DNA of 64,000 bases from an uncultured Christensenellaceae bacterium (GCA_910586655.1 CAJUIR010000006.1:5723-69722); one strand, 5' to 3'; shown: positions 8,846 through 60,182, counted from the first letter of the stretch. Translations and numbers: made by a program. The notes: generated from the sequence alone by a model not told the origin.

Positions 8846-11143
8846 TTATTTCAGTTTCTTTCTGCCTTTGAGTTTCTGAAGATCCACTTCCTCCACCTTT
8901 TTATCGGAGGGCTTCACAACGAACAGCGCAATGACGATCACAAGCAATACTGCGGAAATCGCAAAGAGAACGATCGAAACAACGTTGTTCTGCAACCACT
9001 GCGACTGACCGGGCGTATAGTCGAACGGATTTTGCACTTCCATTACTTTATACGCGGTTTTCACTTCGTTAGAACGGTTGGGGTCGGTGACCGTAAGTTT
9101 TACAAGATAAAATCCCGATACCTGCGGATTAAAGGAAAGCGAATTGTTTTTATGCCAAGCATAATCGTTGTCGGTCTTCTCCCAGTCCTCGTCGTCCTCG
9201 GCAACGTCGCTGTCGTATTCGTTGATTTCTTTCAGACAATTCGCATATTTTTCAACGTACTCGTCGATGTTCTTGACAAAGTCCTCATAAGTGGGAGCAG
9301 ATTCGCCTTCGGCAAGTTTGGTTTCGTCAAAGTAATACAGGGCGTATTCTTTTTGGATTCCGTCGAGCGCGATCACTTCAAAGTCCTCGATGCTGTAAAC
9401 GGTATCGCGATAACCGAGTTTTTGCTCTCCAGAATCTTCGATCGTAGCGCCCGTATAGCCTACGTAGAAACGGAATTCGGGAATTTCGTCGATTTCCCAA
9501 ATGTTGGAAGAATTCAGCGTAACCAGATTCCCGTCCAGATAATACTGCATGTTGTTGCTCGCCGCATCCGTTGCAAGAATGCGGAACGTGTAATATCCCT
9601 GTTCTCCGATTTCGAACTTTAAAGAGTTATAAGTCAGAGAGGTAGCGGAAGACGCGCTTTCGCCTTCACTATGGCTGGGTTTATGGAAGTATACGCTGAA
9701 TTTCAGATCTCTGTAATCGGCGTAATCGCTTGTGATCAGTCCGCGGAGCGAAGGAAGATAGAAGTTCGAGCCGCTGCCCGCGCTCACGTTCTTCGCCGCT
9801 TCGGTAACGGCGTTCTGATATGCCTCCACCGCGGCATTGTAAGCCGATTCATCGCTAAATTCGTTCGATCCGTTTCCCGCCGTCAAACCGACGTATTGCG
9901 GTCCCGCATTGTCACGGTCTACTTTAATATAATCGAACGCGTTATCCCCTGTCGCGGGAAGAGTTACGAGTGCGTCTTCCACCGCATACCACGAAAGGTA
10001 AACGTACTCGCTGTCCTCTACTCCGTGATTGCCTTTTAAGTCGAAGCGCACGGAAACGTAGATCATTTCGTCTTCGCCGATCTCGCCCGTGGGCATGAAA
10101 TACGCGGGACGCGAAGCCGTGATATCGCGGTAGTCGGTCGTTTCGCCCTTGACGTATTCCCCGTCTTCGTTCTTCTTTAACATGTAATAGTACAGTTTTG
10201 CAGTCGCGTTGTTGTCGCAGACGTCGATCACCTGATAGTTCACGGTAGATGTGCTGAATCTCTGACCCATTTTGAACGCGTAAACTTTTTTATTGAGTAC
10301 GATCGCAGGCGCGGTATCGTCGATCACTTTGCCGCCCGTAACCGCGCAATAGCCGTCATCTTCCGCATCGGACGCGGTAAGATCGTTCCCCTTGATCACC
10401 AAAGACTGACCGTTTAAACTGCGGAGAAGTACTTTTTGTTCCGCCGCCTGTTCGCCCTCCGCCGGATCCGCGATCTGCGCAGCGAACGTGACGGGCGTTT
10501 GCGGCGTCGTTGCCGCCGACGAACGGTATTCGAGGAAATAACCGCCGATATTGGTAAACGTACCGATTTCAACTGCGGTTTCATCTCCTTCGGCAAGCGC
10601 AACGTCAAACTCGCCGATGCGATCCCCTTCGCTGAGAGAAAGAGTGAGCCAGACATTCGCGTTAACGGGAACGGTTGCGCTCTCTTCGCCCGCCGAGTTT
10701 TTGACAACCGCAACGATCCCGCTTTCTCCTTTTCGGAAAATCAACGCGTTTTGCGTTTTGCCCTCTTTCGTAATATTTTCTTCCGCGCTTTCAAACGTCA
10801 TGGTAAACGTTTCGAATTTCGCTTCTACAAACCGGAACTGTAAATTGAAATTTTGCTCCGCCGCGTCATCAAACCATTTCAGCGCGAGGTTTCTGCGGTA
10901 ATAAACTTCACCGTCGTCTTTCAATTTGAGCGTCGTATATGCGTCGGTTTCGCCGCCCTCCGCCGCCTTATATGCGGCAACCGAGCCGCCGACCCCCTGT
11001 GCAAATATCGCGGTGGGTTCATATTCTTTTGTCGCTGCAAAAGCGTTCCGCGTCGTCATAGCGGTAAACGCAAAGCCCAAAGATACCGCAAACAATACGG
11101 CGAAAGAAATGATTGTAATCCAACGTAGTTTAACTTTTTTCAT
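8846..11143 (-). CDS. Large secreted/extracytoplasmic protein with N-terminal signal peptide and C-terminal TM anchor; function unknown
   Basis: MKKVKLRWITIISFAVLFAVSLGFAF...AFA signal-like N-terminus. This is followed by ~700 aa of acidic, beta-rich sequence, then one C-terminal helix (VVSIVLFAISAVLLVIVIALFVV) and a basic tail. I recognise no domain. Confidence 0.6.
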   Translation of the reverse strand: MKKVKLRWITIISFAVLFAVSLGFAFTAMTTRNAFAATKEYEPTAIFAQGVGGSVAAYKAAEGGETDAYTTLKLKDDGEVYYRRNLALKWFDDAAEQNFNLQFRFVEAKFETFTMTFESAEENITKEGKTQNALIFRKGESGIVAVVKNSAGEESATVPVNANVWLTLSLSEGDRIGEFDVALAEGDETAVEIGTFTNIGGYFLEYRSSAATTPQTPVTFAAQIADPAEGEQAAEQKVLLRSLNGQSLVIKGNDLTASDAEDDGYCAVTGGKVIDDTAPAIVLNKKVYAFKMGQRFSTSTVNYQVIDVCDNNATAKLYYYMLKKNEDGEYVKGETTDYRDITASRPAYFMPTGEIGEDEMIYVSVRFDLKGNHGVEDSEYVYLSWYAVEDALVTLPATGDNAFDYIKVDRDNAGPQYVGLTAGNGSNEFSDESAYNAAVEAYQNAVTEAAKNVSAGSGSNFYLPSLRGLITSDYADYRDLKFSVYFHKPSHSEGESASSATSLTYNSLKFEIGEQGYYTFRILATDAASNNMQYYLDGNLVTLNSSNIWEIDEIPEFRFYVGYTGATIEDSGEQKLGYRDTVYSIEDFEVIALDGIQKEYALYYFDETKLAEGESAPTYEDFVKNIDEYVEKYANCLKEINEYDSDVAEDDEDWEKTDNDYAWHKNNSLSFNPQVSGFYLVKLTVTDPNRSNEVKTAYKVMEVQNPFDYTPGQSQWLQNNVVSIVLFAISAVLLVIVIALFVVKPSDKKVEEVDLQKLKGRKKLK

Positions 11144-11263
11144 GAACACATGCTCCATGCAGGCATAATTGCCCAATCTATCTTGTCTATTCTACACAAA
11201 AATTGCGTTTCCGTCAAGCAGTAACGCATGCATATTCGGAAAGAATTTGAAAATTTGTCCGAT

Positions 11264-21122: not shown

Positions 21123-23165
21123 TCAGCAGCCGCGCGAACCGCCGCCCCCGCTGCCGCCGCCCGACGAACCGCCGTGTCCGCCTCCGCCGCCTGACGAGCC
21201 GCCCGACGAAGAAGAAAGCGACCGCGACATACTGCCGAAAGCCGAAGGCGAGATGCCGCACGCCCATTCCGGCGCGGCGATATTTAATGGTTTGAACCGC
21301 TTTTCCACTTGTTTGCTGATGCCCATCACCAAACAGTACGGAATGATATCCGAAAAATAATCGGGATTTTCATCAAACAGCAGTTTGATGCGATCCAGTT
21401 CCGCCGTGAGCAAAAACTGTTTGAACCCGCGCATTTTTCCATAATCATGCATCACGTCAGGATCGCGGCGCGTCAGGAAATGCAGCGCGACCTGCGCGAG
21501 CGCCCAGATGGCAAGAGAGAGATATAACAATCCCGCGTAATCGTAGAGCGGCAGATAAAAAATCGAACTCAGCGCAAAAAACGGCAATGCGGTAAAAGCA
21601 ATCGGGAAGACGTATGCGATCGGAGTCATCCGTTCTTTCGCCTGAAAAGACCCCACTCCCGTTCCCGCCGCAATAAAGATGAAGAAAAAGATCGGTATTG
21701 CGCTCATGCTGAGAATACAATAATAAATGATCGTCATTAAAAACGGCACGAGCGAAGCAATCGTAAGAAGAATATGCCCGCGCATGAGATTGGGATAAAG
21801 AACGCTCGGCGTTTCGCCCATCATTCGCATCTTTTCGGCCTTTTGACTCAGTTTGCGCTTTTTGTGTGGATCGGAGGAACGTTTCATTTCGCGCGTCGAA
21901 AAATACGAATTCTCCCCGAATCCGCCGAACATCGGTTGAAACAGTTCGTCGAAATACTCGCGTTCGCTTTTTCCCGTTGTCAATTCCTCGTACGTTTCGT
22001 TCACCGCATCCAACAGCGCGCCCGAACCGGTTTTTTCCAGCATTTCGACAACTTGCTTATAAGACTGCAACGTCTCTTCGTTTTCTTTTCTGACGACTTC
22101 GGGCAGATCCTGCAATTTATAGACGGTAAAGTCGTTTGCGCCGTCTTTTTCGATCCGCACGCAGCCCTTCGATGCCCACGAAGTGATCACCGCGCCGAGA
22201 TCCTGCCTGCGTGCTCTGCCGTGCCATATCGCCGAATAGCGCATTACGTTCATTCCTTCGGGCGGATAAAACTCCACTTGCGCAATAGGCTTTCTTCCGC
22301 GATATTTCAAAAATAAGATAATTCCCGCACCCAATGCCGCCGCCGCAAGCACGGCAAACGGAATGTAATACCAAAAGAACGTGCGCTGCGTTTCAAAGTA
22401 TCCGTCGTCAAAAAGCGCTTGCAGCGTATAGCCCTTGTGTTCCTTCATGGGACGTGCGGACATCGTGACCGTATTTCCGTCGATTCGTTTGGTTTCTCCT
22501 TCGGAGGGTTCCCACGCCGCTTTCCCGTTCGTACGGAAGGAAACTGCGCTTTCGTCCAATACAGACGGGAACGTCACGGTTGCGGAAAAACGTTTGGTAT
22601 AATCCATCGCATAACCGAGCAAATCGATCGTTAAATCGTCATAGCCGGAAACTTTATCGTCGCCGACGCCGTACACGTAGGATAGCACGAACGTATTACA
22701 ACTGTTTTTATCGCTCTGGTCGGTCGCCGGAAAGTAACTCCCATCCTGTTTCTGCATTTTTACGGAATGAAACTGACCCTGACCGTAATAACTCCGAGTC
22801 ACTTTGGCAGGCGCTCCGTTGATGGTCACTTCCACGTCCGAAAGCGTCGTGAGAAAATTCTTTCCGCGTTTTTCTTTTCCGTCGATGATCCGCGCCGTTT
22901 GCGAAACGCGCTGAATATCGCGGATGATTCCGGTATTCTGACCGCCTTTCAGAAAACCGACTTTCATGGTTTCGGTGACGTGCACGGATTTATCGCGCCT
23001 CACGTCCATGACGACGGAAATTTCTTCAAACCACCAATTGGTATCGATGACCGTTTTCCCGCTCTCTTCGTCGTAATACGAGTCCGCAGAAACGGATACC
23101 GAGCAAACGGAAAACGCCGATATCAAAGTAAAAAACGTTAAAATCAAAAACAGCGTCTTTTTCAA
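21123..23165 (-). CDS. DUF2207-family membrane protein with Gly-rich C-terminal tail
   Basis: Signal peptide, ~250-aa extracytoplasmic domain, several TM helices and a tail SSGGSSGGGGGHGGSSGGGSGGGGSRGC. It lies 15 nt downstream of proS and 59 nt upstream of asnS. Confidence 0.7.
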   Translation of the reverse strand: MKKTLFLILTFFTLISAFSVCSVSVSADSYYDEESGKTVIDTNWWFEEISVVMDVRRDKSVHVTETMKVGFLKGGQNTGIIRDIQRVSQTARIIDGKEKRGKNFLTTLSDVEVTINGAPAKVTRSYYGQGQFHSVKMQKQDGSYFPATDQSDKNSCNTFVLSYVYGVGDDKVSGYDDLTIDLLGYAMDYTKRFSATVTFPSVLDESAVSFRTNGKAAWEPSEGETKRIDGNTVTMSARPMKEHKGYTLQALFDDGYFETQRTFFWYYIPFAVLAAAALGAGIILFLKYRGRKPIAQVEFYPPEGMNVMRYSAIWHGRARRQDLGAVITSWASKGCVRIEKDGANDFTVYKLQDLPEVVRKENEETLQSYKQVVEMLEKTGSGALLDAVNETYEELTTGKSEREYFDELFQPMFGGFGENSYFSTREMKRSSDPHKKRKLSQKAEKMRMMGETPSVLYPNLMRGHILLTIASLVPFLMTIIYYCILSMSAIPIFFFIFIAAGTGVGSFQAKERMTPIAYVFPIAFTALPFFALSSIFYLPLYDYAGLLYLSLAIWALAQVALHFLTRRDPDVMHDYGKMRGFKQFLLTAELDRIKLLFDENPDYFSDIIPYCLVMGISKQVEKRFKPLNIAAPEWACGISPSAFGSMSRSLSSSSGGSSGGGGGHGGSSGGGSGGGGSRGC

Positions 23166-41054: not shown

Positions 41055-42992
41055 TCAGCAGCCTCTGCCGCCGCCTCCGCCGAATCCGCCGCCGCCAAAC
41101 CCTCCGCCGAATCCGCCGCCGAACCTTCCGCCCCCGCCCGACGAGGTGGGTTTGGAAACCATATTTCGGGATAATCCTTGATTGAGGGAACGGAACATCG
41201 AGTTCCATACAATACAGGTGAATATAAAATCGCCCGTCGAATAAGTTGCATAGGAAGGCGGCTGCATATCCAGTCCCTTGAATTTATCCGTCCATGCATT
41301 CGAAACGCCCAATACCTGCGCATAGGGCAAAATGCGGTAATACAGATCGGGATTTTCTTTTAACATAAATTCGATCTTATCGCGTTCGGTCACTTCGATA
41401 AACTGCTTGAACCCTAAAATATGTCCCAGCCGATCGTTGTAATCTTTGGTACGGCACAGGAAAAATCCGCTGACACAGCCCGTTCCGACCGCAAATACCA
41501 CAACGATAAATTTGGTCCAGAAACTCAATGCGGCGGAAGGAGTTAAAGCGATCAATACCCCGAAACCCATTCCCAACGCAACGAAAGCAAGCGTAACCGC
41601 AACGCGCAGATACAGTTTCCACTTATACTTTCGCTGGGCTGCAAGGTACGCGCCGCCCGACGCTACAAAACAACCGATGAACGCGCCGAGCACCATAATC
41701 CAGAAATGATACCCGCTCGCGACAGTAAGTAAGGAATAGATCCAAGTAAACCCGCCCAAAACCAATAACGACAGCGCGAGAAACAAGCCGTACAGAACGG
41801 TCCCCTTTCTCGTGTACATTTTTCCCGTTTGGCTCTTGACCGTCGTTTTTACCTGGTTTGCCGTCTTATAAAAACTTTTCGAAAGTTCGGAAGAACGAAC
41901 GGATTCCCTTCCGTCGAACAGTCCCTCGTAAAAGATTCTGCAATGGGCAGGCACGTTCGCAGCAAGCGGTTTTGACGTGCGGTAAAGCGTAGGATCCTTT
42001 TGGCTTTCCGAAAGGTCGATATGCAGATACCCTTCCGAAGCAAGCCAGAATACCAGCGATCCCAAATCTTCGCTGTCGATTTTATTATCGATCAGAAGCC
42101 CCATTAAAAGCGGATCCATCTCGTCGGGCGCAGTCAGATTGATCGTTTTAATCATGTCCGGCTGACGGCATACAAATAGTTTGACGAGCACTGCGGCAAT
42201 CAAAAGCGCCACGCCGATGAGCAATACATAGATCACCGACCGATCGAACGACGCCGTTAAAACGCCCGACTCGAAACTTAAATCGAGCGTGATGCCGGCA
42301 GACGTATAGTAATATCCGTCTTCGCTGTTATGCGGAACGTTCTGCGGCAGACCCAACGAAGTCAGCGTCAGCGTGTTTCCGTTCCGCACGGTCTCCACTT
42401 CGCAATCGTTCCCCGTTGTTCCCGATTCCCCCGAATAGACTTGATACCCTACCAGTCCGTCAGGTACGGTCACAGAAACAGTTACGTCGTTGATTTTCGT
42501 CTGCCAGCCGTAACCGATCACGTCGAGCGGAAGATATCCCTCCTCGGAAAGCGCGGGCACAATCATATCGTATGTAACGATATAGGTTCGCTGCTGACCT
42601 TTGACAACTCCCTTGCCGCGCAAATAATACGAAATGAAAGAAAAATCGTCCGTTTTGATGTAGGGCGCAAAATCGGCGCTGTCGCAATCGGCGGAAATAT
42701 TCTGATACCGAACGCCGCTGCTTAACGGCAGATCGCGGATAATTCCGTGCGAATTATATCCCTCGAAGGAAACGGTGATGGTTTCCTTGACCGAAATTTT
42801 CCGATTGCGTTCCACCGTCATTTCCGCTCGGTACTGTTCGATCGTATAACCGTATTCCGCATCGTAAGGATTCGTCGCGTATGCGTCGGCAGATAAAGAA
42901 ACGGGCGAGGAGAACCCCGCCCATAATCCAAGCACGAGGAGAAGCGCGGCAACCGCCGCTATGATCCCCTTTTTCGTCTTATTATTTTTCAT
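41055..42992 (-). CDS. DUF2207-family membrane protein with Gly-rich C-terminal tail (paralog of 21123..23165)
   Basis: Signal peptide, extracytoplasmic domain, multiple TM helices and a tail SSGGGGRFGGGFGGGFGGGGFGGGGGRGC. It lies 33 nt downstream of lemA. Confidence 0.72.
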   Translation of the reverse strand: MKNNKTKKGIIAAVAALLLVLGLWAGFSSPVSLSADAYATNPYDAEYGYTIEQYRAEMTVERNRKISVKETITVSFEGYNSHGIIRDLPLSSGVRYQNISADCDSADFAPYIKTDDFSFISYYLRGKGVVKGQQRTYIVTYDMIVPALSEEGYLPLDVIGYGWQTKINDVTVSVTVPDGLVGYQVYSGESGTTGNDCEVETVRNGNTLTLTSLGLPQNVPHNSEDGYYYTSAGITLDLSFESGVLTASFDRSVIYVLLIGVALLIAAVLVKLFVCRQPDMIKTINLTAPDEMDPLLMGLLIDNKIDSEDLGSLVFWLASEGYLHIDLSESQKDPTLYRTSKPLAANVPAHCRIFYEGLFDGRESVRSSELSKSFYKTANQVKTTVKSQTGKMYTRKGTVLYGLFLALSLLVLGGFTWIYSLLTVASGYHFWIMVLGAFIGCFVASGGAYLAAQRKYKWKLYLRVAVTLAFVALGMGFGVLIALTPSAALSFWTKFIVVVFAVGTGCVSGFFLCRTKDYNDRLGHILGFKQFIEVTERDKIEFMLKENPDLYYRILPYAQVLGVSNAWTDKFKGLDMQPPSYATYSTGDFIFTCIVWNSMFRSLNQGLSRNMVSKPTSSGGGGRFGGGFGGGFGGGGFGGGGGRGC

Positions 42993-52891: not shown

Positions 52892-53458
52892 TTATGAATT
52901 ATATTTTCGTTTCCGCGTGATGACAAACAGCGGAACGCTTTCTCCGTGATCTCTGCCGCGTCCGATTGCGGCGGGTTTTTCCTGTTCCTCGGGCGTATCC
53001 AGCATCGCGGAAATTTTCATCAATTCCTGCGTACGCTCTTCCGAAAGCGCGTTCATTTTGTATTCGGACAGAATATGCGCGATCGTTTCGACCATCTCTT
53101 CTTTGGGCTCTTTCTCTTCTTCCGAAACTTGGTTCGAGCCGTAACGTTTTACGCCGACGGGCGCGGGCGCGGATTTTGCCTGCGCCTTAGGCGCAGTCTC
53201 CGTCCGCTCTTGCGCGGGATCCGCTTTTTTCATCTCGGATTCGTCGAGAGGCGGTTCGGGAAGCAGGTAAGAAGGAATTTTACGGCTGCCGCGTTGCAAG
53301 ACGTTTTCAAGACGTTCGTGCGCTTTTGCGCAGCGATACTCGTCTTTACTGAAACAATACAGACAGCGCGCATATTTTTTGCACATGTCGCAGCCAAGCG
53401 CTTTTTCCGCTTTCTCTTTTTCCTGTACCAGATACAAGTCTAATTCTTGCGTCGTCAT
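52892..53458 (-). CDS. Hypothetical protein with N-terminal Cys cluster and acidic, low-complexity remainder
   Basis: CDMCKKYARCLYCFSKDEYRC cluster near the N-terminus. It ends 26 nt upstream of the CNNM gene. I recognise no family. Confidence 0.45.
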   Translation of the reverse strand: MTTQELDLYLVQEKEKAEKALGCDMCKKYARCLYCFSKDEYRCAKAHERLENVLQRGSRKIPSYLLPEPPLDESEMKKADPAQERTETAPKAQAKSAPAPVGVKRYGSNQVSEEEKEPKEEMVETIAHILSEYKMNALSEERTQELMKISAMLDTPEEQEKPAAIGRGRDHGESVPLFVITRKRKYNS

Positions 53459-53625
53459 GTTTCACCTTCCGTAAAAGTCCGTAAGATATTTTTATTATAC
53501 TCGAAAAAAAGTTATTTTACAAGTGTTCCGCGGAAAATATTTCAAAACGTTCACAATTTTTTGATCCTTCGGTTTTTTGTTTCGCCTATCCCCCCAAACT
53601 TTTTCCTTATTTATAATAAAAGCGG

Positions 53626-53654
53626 TTGATTTTTTTCAAGCGATTGTTTATAAT
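53626..53654 (+). promoter_or_regulatory. Candidate rnf-operon promoter TTGATT-17-TATAAT
   Basis: -35 at 53626..53631 and -10 at 53649..53654. The first plausible start codon (GTG 53661) is only 6 nt downstream. Confidence 0.55.
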
Positions 53655-53660
53655 AAAACG

Positions 53661-54224
53661 GTGAAAAAAAAGGGAAAATCGATCGGTGCAAAAAAAATTA
53701 CGATACTTGCGCTGTTGACGGGACTGGGGCTGATCGCGTTCTTGATCGAAGCCCTCATTCCCGTGCTTCCCGTTCCCGGGGCGAAACTGGGGATCTCCAA
53801 TATTTTTTCTCTGTTCGCCCTCGTCATGTACGGTCTGCCGGAGGCGCTGATGGTCGTCGTCGCGCGGACGGTTCTGGGAAGCATTTTTGCGGGAAACCTT
53901 TCTCTTTTGCTTTACAGTTTAACAGCCGGCGTCGTAAGCGTCTGCGTTTCGCGCCTGCTTCTTTTGCTGTTCCCGCGCATCAGTATTCTTTCCGTCAGCG
54001 TAACGTCTGCCCTCGTACATAATCTCGTGCAACTGCTCGTGTACTGCGGATTGACGCAGACGATGCTTTTAATGTCCTATGCGCCTTATTTGTGCCTGAT
54101 GGGTACGGGCGCGGGGATCGTCGTGGGACTGGCAGTCGTATTTACCGTAAAAGCCGTACCCCTTTCCGTGTTCCATAAGATCGGGGTTGGAAATAAAGAA
54201 AATTCAGAAACCGGAGGAAACAAA
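53661..54224 (+). CDS. 'Gx transporter' / Hpre_diP_synt_I-like polytopic membrane module; no stop codon, reads in frame into rnfC
   Basis: KKITILALLTGLGLIAFLIEALIPVLPVPGAKLGISNIFSLFALVMYGLPEALMVVVARTVLGSIFAGNLSLLLYSL matches my memory of this family. The start (GTG 53661) is uncertain. The frame stays open to 55520. Confidence 0.65.
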
Positions 54225-55520
54225 TTGAAAGCGAAAAACGGAAAACTTTTCTTCCGCGGCGTTCACATTCGCGGCAGAAAAGAACTCTCGGAAAGCAATC
54301 CTATCGAACCGCTGAACGGTTCGTGGGAAGTTGCCATTCCCGTGAGTCAGCACATCGGCGCGCCCGCCGAGCCTGTCGCGGAAGTCGGACAAACTGTCAA
54401 ACGCGGTCAACTGATCGCAAAAAGCGCAGGCCGGATTTCCGCGAACGTGCATGCAAGCATTGCGGGCACGGTCAAAGAAATTGCGGAGCGCTGCGACGGT
54501 CGGGGTGTAAAGGGCGTTCACATCGTGATCGCGCCGAGCGAAAAACAGGAAACGGACTATCTTCCTCCCCTAACGGAACTTACGGGCGAACAGATCGCAA
54601 AGCGCGTAGAGGAAGCGGGCATCGTCGGTATGGGCGGCGCGGGCTTCCCGACGCACGTCAAACTTGCGCCCCAAAGCGCGGTGGACACGCTCATCCTCAA
54701 CGGCGCGGAATGCGAACCCTATCTTACCTGCGACGACCGACTCATGCAGGAACAGCGCGATAAGATCGTGCGCGGCGCATTCTATCTTGCCAAGGCGCTC
54801 GGCGTAAACCAAGTGATGATCGGCATCGAAAAGAACAAACCGCAGGCGATCGCATTGTTTGAAAAAACCGATCTCCAAGTGATCGCGCTCAAAAAGCAGT
54901 ACCCCATGGGTTCGGAAAAACACCTCATTTACTGCTGTACGGGCAGAAAAGTGCCGCTCGGAAAACTTCCCGCAGACGCAGGCGTCGTGGTGCAAAACGT
55001 AGCGACCGCGTACAGCGTATGCGAAGCCGTGGAAGATGGCAAACCGCTGATCGAACGCGTCGTCACCGTATCGGGAAGCGGCGTGGAACAACCGAAAAAT
55101 CTGCTCTGCCCCGTCGGCGCGCCCCTTTCCGCACTCATCGAGCAATGCGGCGGCGTAAAAGAAAACGCTGTGAAATACGTCGCGGGAGGACCCATGACGG
55201 GTACGGCATTGACGGGAGCGGACGCAGTCGTGACCAAAACGACTTCGGGATTCCTCTTCCTCACGGCAAAGGAAACGTGCAATGCAGAACCGACTCCCTG
55301 CATCAACTGCGGAAAATGCGCCGAAGTCTGCCCTATGAAACTCATGCCCATGCAGATCGAATTTTACGCGGCAAACAAAGATTACGAAAACGCGAATAAA
55401 CGCGGCGGCGCGCTCGCCTGCATCGGCTGCGGCGCATGCGGATATATCTGTCCTGCCCGCCGCCCGTTGGCACAGGCGATCAAAACGACAAAAGCCGAAC
55501 TCGGGAGGAAAAAATCATGA
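54225..55520 (+). CDS. rnfC: Rnf electron-transport complex subunit C module
   Basis: FFRGVHIRGRKELS...PVSQHIGAPAEPV N-terminus, GMGGAGFPTHVKL (NADH/FMN site) and two CxxCxxCxxxCP clusters. An in-frame TTG at 54225 has GGAGGA 6 nt upstream. Confidence 0.9.
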   Translation: MKAKNGKLFFRGVHIRGRKELSESNPIEPLNGSWEVAIPVSQHIGAPAEPVAEVGQTVKRGQLIAKSAGRISANVHASIAGTVKEIAERCDGRGVKGVHIVIAPSEKQETDYLPPLTELTGEQIAKRVEEAGIVGMGGAGFPTHVKLAPQSAVDTLILNGAECEPYLTCDDRLMQEQRDKIVRGAFYLAKALGVNQVMIGIEKNKPQAIALFEKTDLQVIALKKQYPMGSEKHLIYCCTGRKVPLGKLPADAGVVVQNVATAYSVCEAVEDGKPLIERVVTVSGSGVEQPKNLLCPVGAPLSALIEQCGGVKENAVKYVAGGPMTGTALTGADAVVTKTTSGFLFLTAKETCNAEPTPCINCGKCAEVCPMKLMPMQIEFYAANKDYENANKRGGALACIGCGACGYICPARRPLAQAIKTTKAELGRKKS

Positions 55521-56557
55521 GTCACATTCAAGTTTCCCCTACGCCGCACGTCAAAACGCGCCGCACGACAAAGCATATCATGCTCGACGTGCTGATCGCG
55601 CTCGTTCCCGCAACGGCGGCGAGCATCGTTTATTTCGGCTGGCAGGCGGCGGTGATGATCCTGATCGCGCTTGCTTCGGCATTCCTCACGGAATTCGTTT
55701 ACTACATCATTCAGAATAAAATCTGGAGAAGTCCCAAAGAAACCTGTTTGAAATTCTTCAGACAATTCGACTTCACTACGCTGGTCACTGGATTACTGCT
55801 CGCGCTGTGCATGCCCGCCAATATCAACGGCTGGTATATGCCGATATTGGGCAGTATCTTCGCGATTGCGGCGGTAAAAATGCTGTTCGGCGGCACGGGA
55901 AAAAACATCGTAAACCCTGCGTTGGCGGGAAGAGTTTTCCTGTTCATCTCCTTTACGTTGATGACGACAGCGGTTGCCTGCAACTTTGAAGCGATCAACG
56001 GCGGCGGCGCGGTACTGGAAACGGGCGCGACGCAACTGGGCGGCAATATCCTGCAAGGAAAAGAAAGCATCAACTTGCTCGATCTGTTCCTGGGTACGGG
56101 GTTAGCCACCACTGCAATGGGCGAAACCTGTAAAATCGCGTTGCTTGTCGGCGGAATTTATCTTTGCGTGCGCGGCGTGATCAAATGGTATCTCCCCCTC
56201 ATCTATATCGTGGTGGAAGGATTGTTTGCAGCAGCGCTCGACTGGAACATCAATTCGTTCCTTCCCTCGATTCTTTCGGGCGGTCTGATTCTGGGCGCGA
56301 TCTTTATGGCGACCGATTACGTTACTTCGCCCAAGAGCCGGATCGGAAATATCATTTATTTCGTGCTCCTCGGCCTTTTAACAGCGGGACTGAGAAAAGC
56401 GACGGGCATGGAAGTGGTTTCATTCTGTATCCTTCTGATGAACTTTATTGTATTCCTCATCGATATGTTCCTGCCGCTTCTTCCGTTCGGTTTTCAACGG
56501 AAAAAGAAAGAAAAGAAACCCGAAGCGGAAAAACCCGCAAAGGAGGAACGTGTATGA
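55517..56557 (+). CDS. rnfD: Rnf complex subunit D
   Basis: SPTPHVKTRRTTKHIMLDVLIALVPA start, a polytopic membrane protein, with an ETGAT candidate flavinylation motif. ATGA overlap with rnfC. Confidence 0.92.
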   Translation: MSHIQVSPTPHVKTRRTTKHIMLDVLIALVPATAASIVYFGWQAAVMILIALASAFLTEFVYYIIQNKIWRSPKETCLKFFRQFDFTTLVTGLLLALCMPANINGWYMPILGSIFAIAAVKMLFGGTGKNIVNPALAGRVFLFISFTLMTTAVACNFEAINGGGAVLETGATQLGGNILQGKESINLLDLFLGTGLATTAMGETCKIALLVGGIYLCVRGVIKWYLPLIYIVVEGLFAAALDWNINSFLPSILSGGLILGAIFMATDYVTSPKSRIGNIIYFVLLGLLTAGLRKATGMEVVSFCILLMNFIVFLIDMFLPLLPFGFQRKKKEKKPEAEKPAKEERV

Positions 56558-57957
56558 AAGTAAAAGAATTTTTCAAGAGCACGGCGTTTAAGAGTCTGGT
56601 CGTTCTCCTCTCTATCGTGATCATTGCCGGCGCGCTCCTCGCAATTTTTAACGACTTGCTTCACGTTTCCGATCAGGAAAAGTTCGAACGAATCATTAAA
56701 AAGATCTACGGCGGAAATGCTTCCGTCGAAAAGACGCTGGAAATTGCCGACGAAGACAAAACGTATTCCTACGGCGAAGTAAACGCGGCGTATCTGATGA
56801 GCGACGGCAATTACCTCGTTCAATCTACGGGTACCGGCGCATTCGGCAACGGTACGGTAACCGTGTACGTCGTAGTCGAAATGAAAGACTCCGCATTGGC
56901 GGGGATCGGAAAAGTCGTATTCGATTCGACGACCGTTTCCAAATACTACGAAACAAGCGGCGATTTCTTTAAAAAGTTCGACATCAGCGACGACAGAGTT
57001 GCCGCGGGAGAATATTTCGGCGTTTCGGAAGGGATCGTCAATCCCTCTGCGGGCGCGACGGCTTCGGCAAGATCGATCAATAACGCCGTAAACACTGCAA
57101 TCGACTTCATTAAAAAAGCGGTGCTCGGGCAAACGGTGGGCGAATTCACCTACGCATACGAAAAGTATATCAAAATGGACGCGTCTACCATCACACCCGA
57201 TCAAGAACAGAAATCGGTGGATTATGAACTCGTCGTATCCGAAAACGGCGAAGCGGTGGCGTTTAAAATTTCCGTCAAAGTCGTTGAAGGCGTGATCACT
57301 GAATATACGATCGTGACCAACGGCTCCACCTATGGCTTTGAAGAGAGCATGCCCCCCGAATTCCTCGCTCAGGGCAGTGAAAACTATTTCGTTAACAAAA
57401 CGCTTTCCGACGTCGAGGCGCTGCTCAAAGAGGACGGCAGTCTTTCCGAAGCGGGTTCCGGTCTGCATACGGGCGCGACATTCTCTACGCAATCCTGTAT
57501 CTGGGCTGCGGCGTTTGCAACCGCAAACTTCGAAGCATTCCTGTATCCCGTTGTTTACGGAGAACATATCGACGAAGAAACGCATACCGTTACAGACAAC
57601 GAAATTGCCTATCATATCACCGTATCCGAAAACGGCGAAGCGGTAGCGTTTAAAATTTCCGTTAAAGTCGTTGACGGCGTGATTACCGAATATGCAATCG
57701 TGACCAACGGCTCCACCTATGGCTTTGAAGAGAGCATGCCCCCCGAATTCCTCGCTCAGGGCAGCGAAAACTATTTCGTTAACAAAACGCTTTCCGACGT
57801 TGAAGCACTGCTCAATGAGGACGGCAGTCTTTCCGAGGCGGGTTCCGGTCTGCATACAGGCGCGACGTACTCCACGCAATCCTGTATTTGGGCGGCGGCA
57901 TACGCGCTCGGCAATTACGACACCCTGCTTGCAAAAGAAGGAGGTGCACAGGCATGA
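56554..57957 (+). CDS. rnfG: Rnf complex subunit G, expanded to three FMN-binding-like modules (467 aa)
   Basis: N-terminal TM anchor, then module 1 with SAGATAS. Modules 2 and 3 each end in HTGAT(F/Y)STQS. ATGA overlaps with both rnfD and rnfE fix the gene boundaries. Confidence 0.85.
   Translation: MKVKEFFKSTAFKSLVVLLSIVIIAGALLAIFNDLLHVSDQEKFERIIKKIYGGNASVEKTLEIADEDKTYSYGEVNAAYLMSDGNYLVQSTGTGAFGNGTVTVYVVVEMKDSALAGIGKVVFDSTTVSKYYETSGDFFKKFDISDDRVAAGEYFGVSEGIVNPSAGATASARSINNAVNTAIDFIKKAVLGQTVGEFTYAYEKYIKMDASTITPDQEQKSVDYELVVSENGEAVAFKISVKVVEGVITEYTIVTNGSTYGFEESMPPEFLAQGSENYFVNKTLSDVEALLKEDGSLSEAGSGLHTGATFSTQSCIWAAAFATANFEAFLYPVVYGEHIDEETHTVTDNEIAYHITVSENGEAVAFKISVKVVDGVITEYAIVTNGSTYGFEESMPPEFLAQGSENYFVNKTLSDVEALLNEDGSLSEAGSGLHTGATYSTQSCIWAAAYALGNYDTLLAKEGGAQA
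57235..57906 (+). repeat. Tandem direct duplication inside rnfG (period 387 bp; copies ~57235..57519 and ~57622..57906)
   Basis: The copies align base for base with roughly twenty mismatches over ~285 nt by eye, including a ~68-nt identical stretch. The ORF track's spurious ORFs 57332.. and 57719.. (MALKRACPPNSSLRA...) are the same sequence offset by 387 nt. Confidence 0.9.
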
Positions 57958-58685
57958 ATAAATACGGAAAAATAACGATCAACGGTCTCGTTACCAACAA
58001 CGCCGCATTCAAACTGGTGCTCGGCACCTGCTCGGCGCTTGCAATGTCCGCAACGGCGATCAAGGGTCTCGGGATGGGAATTTCGGTCACCGTCGTGTTA
58101 CTGTTGAGCAACGTACTCATTTCCCTGCTCCGTAAGGTGATCCCCAATGCGGTACGCATTCCCGCGTTCATCGTAATCATTGCAACGTTCGTGACGCTTT
58201 TGAGAATGTTTTTAAACAAATTCATTCCCGATCTATACGATTCGATGGGTGTATTCCTGGCGCTGATCGTTGTAAACTGTCTGATTTTAGGCAGAGCGGA
58301 AGCATTCGCAAGCAAACAACCCGTCCTTGACAGCGCGCTCGACGGACTTGCTTCGGGTCTCGGTTTCACGCTCGCGCTCGGCATCATGGGCATCATCCGC
58401 GAACTTCTGGGCGCAGGCAGTCTGTTCGATCAAAAACTGTGGGATTTCCAAATCGGATTCTTTTCCAGTTCCGCAGGCGCCTTCTTCGTGTACGGGATCT
58501 GTATTGCGATCTTCGTATTCATTACGGATAAAGTAGAAAAAGCGCTGCGGAAGAAAAAAGCGATCCTGCTCCGCGTAGATCATAGCGAACCTCTGCCCGA
58601 ACCGCAGACGGCAGCCGAAACGGGAATCCAGACCGATTCCGCATCGGAACTCGTTCAGGAACAGCAGGAAAAGGAGGCAGAATAA
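57954..58685 (+). CDS. rnfE: Rnf complex subunit E (with ~45-aa hydrophilic C-terminal extension)
   Basis: LVLGTCSALA and LALIVVNCLILGRAEAFA motifs. ATGA overlap with rnfG. Confidence 0.92.
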   Translation: MNKYGKITINGLVTNNAAFKLVLGTCSALAMSATAIKGLGMGISVTVVLLLSNVLISLLRKVIPNAVRIPAFIVIIATFVTLLRMFLNKFIPDLYDSMGVFLALIVVNCLILGRAEAFASKQPVLDSALDGLASGLGFTLALGIMGIIRELLGAGSLFDQKLWDFQIGFFSSSAGAFFVYGICIAIFVFITDKVEKALRKKKAILLRVDHSEPLPEPQTAAETGIQTDSASELVQEQQEKEAE

Positions 58686-59296
58686 TGGGCGCAACGATTC
58701 TTACGATTATTATCACGGCGGCATTCTCGTCGAACTTCATTTTAGTGCAGTTCCTCGGAATCTGTCCCTTCCTCGGCGTTTCCAAACGCACAGGCAGCGC
58801 GGTATCCATGGGCATTGCGGTAACGCTCGTCATGCTGCTTGCGACGCTCGTGACGTATCCCCTCTATCAATACGTCATGAAACCGCTTAAAATCGAGTTC
58901 CTCGAAATTATCTTCTTTATCTTTATTATTGCGGCGCTCGTGCAGATGCTCGAAAAGGTGATCGCGAAGATCTCCCCCTCTCTCTATAAAACGATGGGAA
59001 TCTATCTGCCTCTGATCACCACCAACTGTGCGATTTTAGGCGTTGCGGAACTGGTCATCGGCGATAAATTCTATGAAGCCATCGGTTTGGCGGAACCGGC
59101 TTCCATGAACTTAGGCTATGCGCTCCTCTATGCGCTGTTCGCAGGCGTCGGCTTTACGCTTGCCATGGTACTGATGGGCGGCGTAAGAGAACGCGTCGAA
59201 AAACTTCCCGTCGCAAAATGTCTGAAAGGCTTCCCCATTACAATGGTTGTGGCAAGTTTCATGGCAATGGCGTTTTACGTGTTCACCATGATTTAA
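58685..59296 (+). CDS. rnfA: Rnf complex subunit A
   Basis: LGICPFLGVS and LPLITTNCAILGVA motifs. TAATG overlap with rnfE. Confidence 0.92.
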   Translation: MGATILTIIITAAFSSNFILVQFLGICPFLGVSKRTGSAVSMGIAVTLVMLLATLVTYPLYQYVMKPLKIEFLEIIFFIFIIAALVQMLEKVIAKISPSLYKTMGIYLPLITTNCAILGVAELVIGDKFYEAIGLAEPASMNLGYALLYALFAGVGFTLAMVLMGGVRERVEKLPVAKCLKGFPITMVVASFMAMAFYVFTMI

Positions 59297-59308: not shown

Positions 59309-60127
59309 ATGAGTAATTTGATTTTAGTAGATATGCATTGGGATATTGTTGGCATCGTCATCGGTATCTTTGCGGCAATCGCAATTATACTGACCGTTTG
59401 CATCCTGCTTGTGGCGAAATTCTGCAAGACCGATCCCAACGAAAAAGTGGAAGCCATTTTGTCGCATCTTGCGGGCGCAAACTGCGGCGGATGCGGATGC
59501 TCGGGCTGCGCAGGCTTTGCGGAAAAACTCGCAAAGGGCGAGGCGCAACTGAGCGATTGTCACGTCACCGGCGACAGTTCCAAAGCGGAAATCGCGGGCG
59601 TGCTCGGCATTGCGTTTGAAAACGCGAAACCTACGGTTGCCGTTTGCCGCTGCAACGGCGGAACGCATGCAAAAGACGAATTCTCCTATTCCGGCGCGCA
59701 CGACTGCGTAGAAGAAAATAAACTTCAAGGCGGTCACAAATCCTGTAAATACGGCTGTATGGGAGGAGGCACTTGCGTGAGCGTTTGTCCTGAATCGGCA
59801 ATTTGCATCAAAGAAGAATGCGCCAACGTCGATCCCGACCGCTGCATTTCCTGCGGCGCATGTCTGAGCGCTTGCCCCAAAGGATTGTTCATGCGCGTTC
59901 CCGCCGACGCAAAAGTGTTCATCGCCTGCTCTTCGCACGATAAAGGAAAGGCTGTGTTAGACGTTTGCGAATTCGGCTGTATTGCCTGCGGCAAATGCGC
60001 GAAGACCTGCCCTTCGGGTGCGATCTCCATGGTAGACAATCTCCCTGTGATCGACTACGAAAAATGTATTAAGTGCGGTAAGTGCGCAGAAGTCTGCCCT
60101 CGCCACACCATTCAGACAAGATACTAA
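59309..60127 (+). CDS. rnfB: Rnf complex subunit B
   Basis: N-terminal TM helix, a CGGCGCSGCAGFAE cluster and several ferredoxin-type CxxCxxCxxxCP motifs. Confidence 0.92.
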   Translation: MSNLILVDMHWDIVGIVIGIFAAIAIILTVCILLVAKFCKTDPNEKVEAILSHLAGANCGGCGCSGCAGFAEKLAKGEAQLSDCHVTGDSSKAEIAGVLGIAFENAKPTVAVCRCNGGTHAKDEFSYSGAHDCVEENKLQGGHKSCKYGCMGGGTCVSVCPESAICIKEECANVDPDRCISCGACLSACPKGLFMRVPADAKVFIACSSHDKGKAVLDVCEFGCIACGKCAKTCPSGAISMVDNLPVIDYEKCIKCGKCAEVCPRHTIQTRY

Positions 60128-60143: not shown

Positions 60144-60182
60144 AAAAGGAGCGCCGTCCGAAATTCGGACGGCGCTCCTTTT
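60144..60182. terminator. Strong terminator after rnfB (also faces the convergent small ORF)
   Basis: Stem AAAAGGAGCGCCGTCCG/CGGACGGCGCTCCTTTT. Confidence 0.9.

Follow-up and report, generated by a model that had tools for sequence, protein, structure and literature searches.

An RnfG with two extra, probably flavin-binding modules in the eetB-rnf operon of uncultured Christensenellales-type gut Clostridia

We analyzed the rnfG gene carried by a 64,000-nucleotide stretch of DNA from an uncultured Christensenellaceae bacterium (GCA_910586655.1, CAJUIR010000006.1:5723-69722), which at its full length is called the window below. The locus is an eetB-rnfCDGEAB operon of an uncultured Christensenellales-type gut Clostridia bacterium. 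In many gut anaerobes, Rnf is the central complex of energy conservation, and in the textbook model RnfG bears just one flavin. The protein encoded here, 467 amino acids (aa) in length, is an RnfG with a membrane anchor, one canonical flavin mononucleotide (FMN)-binding domain and then two extra modules. We favor the reading that an old, gene-converted RnfG with three FMN-binding domains is produced from an eetB-rnf operon and that its modules would act as a flavin relay directed outward; to this joint reading we assign a probability of about 0.6.

The operon encodes, in order, RnfC, RnfD, RnfG, RnfE, RnfA and RnfB, as identified with Pfam and NCBIfam. The original prediction, made from the DNA alone, had fixed rnfG by ATGA overlaps with both neighbors and assigned it 467 aa, and this proved correct. 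The open reading frame (ORF) lies at 56554..57957 on the plus strand between the genes for RnfD and RnfE; the rnfD stop codon overlaps the rnfG ATG (GTATGAAAG), the rnfG stop codon overlaps the rnfE ATG (GCATGAATA), and rnfC and rnfD overlap likewise. The usual RnfG length of about 200 aa, given in that prediction, also agrees with the proteins that we compared, since the solved RnfG of Clostridium tetanomorphum (chain G of 7zc6, or 7zc6_G) has 189 aa and single-domain RnfG relatives of the same clade have 197–208 aa. The membrane anchor occupies aa about 10–35 at the N-terminus (56581..56658, plus strand; KVKEFFKSTAFKSLVVLLSIVIIAGALLAIF), and lysines ahead of its hydrophobic helix predict an N-in, C-out topology. 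Domain 1, the canonical RnfG FMN-binding domain, follows at aa about 55–195 (56716..57138, plus strand) and carries, in translation, the motif VNPSAGATASARS. Against Pfam FMN_bind (PF04205), the whole protein scored 23.3 bits (cut-off 22) over a single stretch, aa 100–183, which falls in this domain.

An AlphaFold2 model of the full-length protein, computed with 16 homologues, had a predicted local distance difference test score (pLDDT) of 80.5 and consisted of an N-terminal helix at residues 10–35 and three alpha/beta units. The top Foldseek match of the whole model was 7zc6_G (probability 1.00, template modeling (TM) score for the target 0.55, 199 columns). This match spans the anchor and domain 1, so that Foldseek of the whole model reaches RnfG for the N-terminal part only; matches to PUR-alpha, major histocompatibility complex and kinetochore proteins had TM scores below 0.25 and were set aside. 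The NCBIfam rnfG models scored far under their cut-offs on the 467-aa protein (TIGR01947, 9.4 bits against 102; NF045876, 9.1 bits against 205). We attribute this to the divergence of the family, which is too great for these models, and the RnfG assignment rests on position and fold. In the databases, relatives of the protein are labeled 'hypothetical protein' at NCBI, and a 99%-identical protein (P0001) is named 'uncharacterized protein YegJ (DUF2314 family)' at JGI, a label for which our analysis gave no support.

The two extra modules occupy the remainder of the protein, and the predicted layout of an anchor and a first module followed by two units of about 129 aa, with candidate flavinylation threonines, was confirmed. 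Module 2 spans aa 206–334 (57169..57555, plus strand) and was recognized by the modules' own hidden Markov model (HMM), by a module profile run against PDB sequences and by HHalign against domain 1. Module 3 spans aa 338–467 (57565..57954, plus strand), was recognized by its AlphaFold2 model, by Foldseek and by a Pfam FMN_bind match of E = 0.09, and ends in a terminal-module tail (…AAAYALGNYDTLLAKEGGAQA) that is conserved across the family in a 16-protein alignment. Because Pfam is blind to the modules, homology was shown instead through a family profile, built from an alignment of 36 family modules. Among all PDB sequences, the best match of this profile was the RnfG 7zc6_G (E = 6.8e-4), with profile positions 19–127 aligned to RnfG residues 84–186 and the module TGAT placed on the flavinylated TGAT of RnfG; the FMN_bind structures 3o6u and 8p2b were lesser matches. 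HHalign of the modules against the family's own domain 1 gave E = 6.4e-4 with the motif in register, and the iterated module HMM also recovered the canonical domain 1 of several relatives. FMN_bind was the sole Pfam family that recurred among the 36 modules; matches of separate modules to EKAL, DUF11, TIM21 and Rv0340 (Pfam/NCBIfam) were below cut-off and were treated as noise.

The structural comparison pointed in the same direction. Module 3 was modeled with a pLDDT of 90.6 and a predicted TM score (pTM) of 0.86, and the best full-length Foldseek matches of the module model were NqrC (8a1u_C; E = 0.08, TM score for the query 0.43) and domain 1 of CbFMN4 (8p2b; TM score for the target 0.65). 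Matches to de novo NTF2 proteins were rejected as partial, covering ~45 residues of beta-sheet only. Taken together, the profile and fold matches suggest that the modules are likely, but not proven, to be a strongly diverged branch of the FMN_bind fold, about 125–129 aa long, with an extra N-terminal beta-hairpin. Thus, the claim of three FMN-binding modules stands as far as remote homology and the retained acceptor threonine are concerned, but not in terms of Pfam, which sees a single FMN_bind stretch; read literally, the outcome that the original prediction had itself named as refuting it, a single FMN_bind domain in HMM searches, is the one obtained. A search of 5.8 billion proteins returned 57 homologues of the protein, just 10 of which carry a precomputed PF04205 match. 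When 1.84 billion representative proteins were searched exhaustively with an HMM, the module turned up in 199 clusters, 131 of them at E ≤ 1e-10; with only this number of clusters, the module family is small and lineage-restricted.

Every unit has a candidate flavin acceptor: T169 in domain 1 (motif NPSAGAT, codon 57058..57060), T309 in module 2 (GLHTGAT, codon 57478..57480) and T438 in module 3 (GLHTGAT, codon 57865..57867). Modules 2 and 3 each close with SGLHTGAT(F/Y)STQSCIWAAA. T169 aligns with a column that, in 26 relatives, is always Ser or Thr. The 118 modules found in 80 species have Thr or Ser at the acceptor position in 112 cases (95%) and the full [ST]GA[ST] in 96; the preceding Gly-Ala is nearly invariant, and GAG or NAG stands in place of the acceptor in five modules of relatives. 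Since a (T)GA(T) site is kept in each unit, RnfG is predicted to carry three flavins, at T169, T309 and T438, and RnfD, which has a TGAT flavinylation-type motif of its own (…AVLETGATQLGG…, read from the translation), one more. Six residues past the acceptor threonine, modules 2 and 3 have a cysteine (TGATxSTQSC; C315, codon 57496..57498, and C444, codon 57883..57885), and such a cysteine after the acceptor occurs in about 40% of family modules.

We then consider how widespread this architecture is. GTDB species, each represented by one genome, were scanned and yielded 80 related loci; the query's own species is not among them, and the best match is 64% identical. By their record titles, all come from uncultured gut Clostridia (Christensenella sp., Christensenellaceae, Candidatus Coproplasma, Borkfalkiaceae and Gallimonas), and in 80 of 80 the gene is directly flanked by rnfD and rnfE. 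Extra RnfG modules number zero in about 14 loci, one in about 38, two in about 22, three in about 5 and four or more in about 2, so at least one is present in about 80% of the loci. The lengths of the 57 homologues cluster correspondingly near 335, 470, 600 and 660–770 aa. A second route of expansion exists in the clade, in which a whole unit of the domain 1 type is repeated two to four times in tandem (P0011, P0013, P0014 with 697 aa, P0025 with 544 aa, P0034 and P0036); the acceptor motifs of these proteins are unusual (QTT, GTS, GVS), with a final residue that is still Ser or Thr. Expanded RnfG is the rule in the Christensenellales-type lineage, not the oddity of a single genome.

The original prediction had explained modules 2 and 3 by a recent 387-bp tandem duplication. 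The two in-frame DNA copies of about 90% identity on which it relied are present as a direct repeat of 300 nucleotides (nt), 57223-57522 versus 57610-57909, with a start-to-start spacing of 387 nt, and a repeat of this length is far beyond chance. A simple duplication of a 387-bp unit in this genome, with both copies kept since they are young, would account for the spacing, the identity and the intact frame, as well as for a synonymous divergence (dS) between the cores of only about 0.30. The similarity, however, extends over only about 300 of the 387 nt. Nucleotide identity along the unit is 87–100% in the central ~300 nt, 50–57% in the transition windows and 17–26% at the edges, leaving the outer ~87 nt of each unit unalignable behind sharp boundaries. 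Tandem Repeats Finder reported nothing in 56000-58500, which we ascribe to the presence of about 1.8 copies only and to the unalignable unit edges.

Comparison with a second species is more telling. The related locus L005, whose protein is 64% identical to the query, shares the two-module layout, and its flanks and tails match those of the query by position: flank identity is 46–57% between orthologous positions and 25–31% between paralogous ones. The cores behave in the opposite way, being alike within each species, with an aa identity of 92% in the query (dS 0.30, nonsynonymous divergence (dN) 0.046) and 80% in L005, as against only 61–72% between orthologous cores (dS about 1.2–1.3). Moreover, two extra modules are found in 22 of the 80 species, and the signatures AAAFATAN at the end of the internal module and AAAYALxNYD…GG at that of the terminal module are conserved throughout the 16-protein alignment, in which the other proteins are 33–65% identical to the query. 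These positional signatures and the orthology of the flanks mean that the duplication predates these species and that the cores evolve in concert. The claim of a recent duplication therefore has to be given up, and we regard such an event as very improbable. The part of the claim that held the repeat to be maintained is supported: dN/dS between the two cores of the query is about 0.15, and both are under purifying selection. These results indicate an old, lineage-typical duplication with ongoing intragenic gene conversion over ~300 nt per core, the homogenized cores being copy 1 in module 2 (57223..57522, plus strand), which is also the region of the conversion tracts, and copy 2 in module 3 (57610..57909, plus strand). 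That the cores are ~90% identical is accounted for by repeated homogenization through gene conversion, under purifying selection.

Variation within the species bears on the same question. A 467-aa protein 99% identical to that of the window, differing from the window allele by 6 residues, is encoded on at least 24 contigs that were assembled independently and come from NCBI metagenome-assembled genomes (MAGs), ENA metagenomes and a JGI metagenome, with an identical gene order around it on all of them. Between the window and this common allele there are 19 nt differences, 13 of which fall in the 300-nt core of module 2, and at each of these 13 the base of the paralogous module 3 site is present in one strain. 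The differences come in runs, with the module 3 bases carried by the window over gene positions 771-806 and by the other allele over 723-754. This strain mosaic in module 2 is the footprint of short gene-conversion tracts. It might be argued that the architecture itself is an assembly artefact, a repeat that was collapsed or expanded, given that 90%-identical cores can confuse short-read assemblers and that the window allele departs from the common one precisely by paralogue-matching patches. The recurrence of the 467-aa product on at least 24 contigs from differing projects and assemblers, the same architecture in orthologues of many species and the intact frame and ATGA overlaps speak against this. 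Because the contigs are independent, the three-unit architecture is not an assembly artefact, an explanation that we consider barely credible.

The genomic context links the operon to flavinylation. PF07456 corresponds to EetB, which in Listeria is the substrate-binding subunit of an exporter of flavin adenine dinucleotide (FAD), of the energy-coupling factor (ECF) type, that feeds extracytosolic ApbE; eetB is known to co-localize with rnf in 572 Clostridia genomes (PMC9973259). In the window, eetB is fused in frame to rnfC, as it is in L005, L013 and L045. In 74 of the 80 related loci it is a separate gene immediately preceding rnfC, and an eetB of either kind, fused to rnfC or upstream of it, is present in 79 of the 80. 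In about 40 of the 80 loci, rnfB is closely followed, on the opposite strand, by apbE and a NusG_II gene, after which at least 20 loci have a gene for a multi-FMN_bind protein. We take the NusG_II protein of these relatives to be the likely counterpart of EetA. At the locus L086 (13219..18124, minus strand), a NusG_II gene, apbE (415 aa) and the gene for a 1032-aa lipoprotein lie downstream of rnfB, and the lipoprotein contains about 8 canonical FMN_bind repeats with one RnfG-type module in line. Of the contextual evidence, this module amid FMN_bind repeats speaks most strongly for a flavin domain. The rnf operon is thereby linked to the export of FAD; in relatives the link extends to ApbE and multi-FMN lipoproteins.

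On this basis, a mechanism can be proposed. Domain 1 would do the normal work of Rnf, between RnfA/E and RnfD, and modules 2 and 3, on the outer face of the membrane, would form a short flavin relay branching off domain 1. All three RnfG sites would be flavinylated outside the membrane, with the FAD needed there supplied by the EetB domain fused to RnfC. The relay may then move electrons between Rnf and a partner or acceptor outside the cytosol; as partner in relatives, the multi-FMN lipoprotein whose gene adjoins apbE alongside the rnf operon is the likely candidate. Published precedents are the flavinylation of multi-FMN proteins at every repeat when they are co-expressed with ApbE (PMC10339131) and the proposal, for multi-flavinylated RnfGs, of a second path to extracytosolic acceptors (PMC8238504).

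Several observations weigh against this reading, and they concern each of its parts. As to the nature of the modules, Pfam FMN_bind remained below threshold on the separate modules (no match for module 2; 13.9 bits, E = 0.09, for module 3) and matched just 2 of the 36 family modules at E ≤ 0.01, the probability given by HHalign for modules versus domain 1 was only 28%, and the Foldseek matches of the module model were weak (E 0.08–0.6, none ≤0.001). The model of full-length RnfG had a pTM of 0.56, so that the arrangement of its domains is uncertain. As to flavin loading, which we infer throughout for the RnfG sites, the modules have the [S/T]GA[S/T] part (GLHTGAT) of the motif D-x-x-[S/T]-G-A-[S/T] but no Asp at −6, and domain 1 (NPSAGAT) has Ala, not Ser or Thr, at −3. 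As to the relay, the 64-kb window contains no apbE, nusG_II or multi-FMN lipoprotein gene, and it allows no acceptor or partner to be named for this genome; for apbE, this result was obtained with Pfam on the main ORFs and with phmmer, using ApbE of the clade, against six frames of the window. The TGAT motif of RnfD suggests that the genome should need ApbE anyway. As to gene conversion, a short-read assembler that switched between the paralogous cores could mimic the mosaic within the species. Such switching could not explain the pattern of cores and flanks between species, which is independent of the mosaic.

The weakness of the HMM and fold matches and the missing Asp could also mean that the extra modules are degenerate and serve, flavin-free and without electron transfer, for spacing, for contact with the cell wall or for docking, and the loss of the acceptor, as GAG or NAG, in 5 of the 118 modules of relatives fits with this. 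Degenerate domains would, on the other hand, hardly be expected to keep Thr or Ser in 95% of acceptor columns behind a nearly invariant Gly-Ala, or to be under purifying selection in both cores, and the same module type stands in line with canonical FMN_bind repeats in the lipoprotein whose gene adjoins apbE. As for the missing Asp, a review of ApbE describes it as strictly conserved, yet its change to Ala barely affects flavinylation, while changes of the Gly and Ala lower loading (PMC12052999). We therefore think it unlikely that the modules are flavin-free.

A somewhat less unlikely alternative is that the modules are flavinylated but buffer electrons locally or, at the cell surface, directly reduce small soluble acceptors such as oxygen, free flavins or Fe(III) chelates. 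SaFMN3 has three flavins of one and the same potential and, once reduced, reacts directly with O2 (PMC10339131); near-identical cores likewise suggest near-identical potentials for modules 2 and 3, and a partner gene is absent from the 64-kb window. The gene neighborhood of relatives suggests a protein-to-protein chain instead, with a multi-FMN lipoprotein, apbE and nusG_II beside the operon. The results for this genome fit both readings alike; we lean towards an outward relay and hold a buffer or reductase to be possible but improbable.

To our knowledge, a single genomic survey has drawn attention to multi-flavin RnfGs, and no member has been studied biochemically. That survey, by Méheust, Huang, Rivera-Lugo, Banfield & Light (eLife 2021; PMC8238504), was bioinformatic only and reported RNF clusters with multi-flavinylated RnfGs. 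The earlier remark that a three-flavin arm lies outside the textbook Rnf model is thus right as regards the textbook, in which it is absent, but the arm is not new, and expanded RnfG, common as it is in this clade, had already been described in bioinformatic terms. The window RnfG shares with the surveyed proteins its place in an rnf operon, at least two FMN-binding domains outside the cytosol, the proposed role, a second route for electrons leaving Rnf toward extracytosolic acceptors, and the taxonomic neighborhood, as the survey singles out Christensenellales (PMC8238504). It differs in how the domains are counted. The surveyed class is defined by multiple Pfam FMN_bind matches, whereas the window RnfG shows one Pfam stretch and would, we infer, count as single-domain under the threshold used there (hmmsearch E<0.001); its additional extracytosolic domains are recognized by remote homology and anchor topology, not by Pfam count. 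Furthermore, the Christensenellales RnfGs that the survey highlights have a multi-haem domain (PMC8238504), which the window family lacks: the CxxCH motif is absent from all 57 homologues, and no multi-haem RnfG was found.

Other known systems match the window RnfG in part. Canonical RnfG and NqrC (7zc6 chain G; Vibrio cholerae NqrC, 8a1u chain C) have the same N-terminal anchor and TGAT-type FMN_bind domain, and canonical rnfG has the same position between rnfD and rnfE; the canonical RnfG has one domain in 189 aa, whereas that of the window has three in 467 aa. SaFMN3 and CbFMN4 (Tong et al., BBA Adv 2023; PMC10339131) likewise contain tandem, highly similar FMN repeats, each with a GAT acceptor, and the CbFMN4 structure 8p2b is among both the structural and the sequence matches of the window module. 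All repeats of SaFMN3 and CbFMN4 were shown to be loaded by ApbE (PMC10339131), whereas loading of the window RnfG is predicted. Their repeats are ~80 aa long, canonical and equipped with the motif Asp, whereas the window modules are ~125 aa long, with the extra N-terminal beta-hairpin and without the Asp; and they are free-standing secreted proteins or lipoproteins, whereas the window modules belong to a subunit of an ion-pumping complex. The flavin-based extracellular electron transfer (EET) system of Listeria (PplA, FmnB/ApbE, EetA, EetB and FmnA; PMC9973259) has in common with the window an extracytosolic protein with two FMN domains and EetB and, with relatives only, ApbE and a NusG_II protein beside the system. 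In Listeria electrons enter through Ndh2 and demethylmenaquinone, whereas in the window system they would enter through the Rnf complex (ferredoxin/NADH); and, unlike in Listeria, the flavin domains lie within RnfG, and EetB forms one protein with RnfC.

The remaining genes of the operon, all on the plus strand, are as follows. The eetB-rnfC fusion gene (53577..55520; 647 aa; Pfam, and NCBIfam rnfC TIGR01945 with 482.8 bits) encodes an EetB-type membrane domain, PF07456, at aa 47–187 (about 53715..54137), followed at aa 225–647 by RnfC, which comprises RnfC_N, Complex1_51K, SLBB and 2x[4Fe-4S] in Pfam. An identical 647-aa product is called in four independent assemblies. A promoter-like site at 53626..53654 falls within this ORF as annotated from a TTG start codon, so the actual start may be further downstream. 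rnfD (55517..56557; 346 aa; PF03116, E = 1.6e-78) has ATGA overlaps with rnfC and rnfG. rnfE (57954..58685; PF02508, E = 1.1e-59) and rnfA (58685..59296; PF02508, E = 1.3e-52) are followed by rnfB (59309..60127), which encodes an FeS domain and several 4Fe-4S motifs. A hairpin with an 18-bp stem directly 3' of rnfB (60144..60182, plus strand) is the likely operon terminator.

Divergently from the operon runs an ORF of 188 aa (52892..53458, minus strand) that has no Pfam family on record and a Cys-rich N-terminus (CDMCKKYARCLYCFSKDEYRC); it is conserved beside the operon in the four contigs of the same species. Farther away, a 776-aa ORF (8846..11176, minus strand) has no Pfam match at 1e-5; its product, signal-like at the N-terminus and with a membrane anchor at the C-terminus, is probably a surface protein. 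Examined as a candidate partner of RnfG, it showed neither a flavinylation motif nor a match to the module. Two paralogous DUF2207 membrane proteins are encoded ~18 kb apart, at 21123..23165 and 41055..42992, both on the minus strand.

What this case contributes is that expansion of RnfG is the norm in a lineage, that its repeats are in concerted evolution, that eetB and rnfC are fused and that the domain family involved is largely invisible to Pfam. Species differ in the number of module copies, which gene conversion keeps alike. It follows for surveys of flavoproteins that Pfam-based counts underestimate multi-flavinylated proteins. The 467-aa RnfG, with its three predicted sites, is a clonable candidate for asking whether Rnf feeds an outward flavin wire. 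We suggest, tentatively and as something that may well turn out otherwise, that the Rnf complex of Christensenellales could be the membrane entry and exit of an all-flavin extracellular chain, free of quinones and cytochromes, in which electrons would pass from ferredoxin/NADH through the Rnf core to RnfG domain 1, the RnfG modules, multi-FMN lipoproteins and external acceptors, with FAD provided via the RnfC-fused EetB. The number of RnfG modules in such a chain, from 1 to more than 4, may be tuned by duplication and gene conversion. If this were true, the ion-motive force generated by Rnf in these health-associated gut anaerobes would be partly independent of NAD+ availability.

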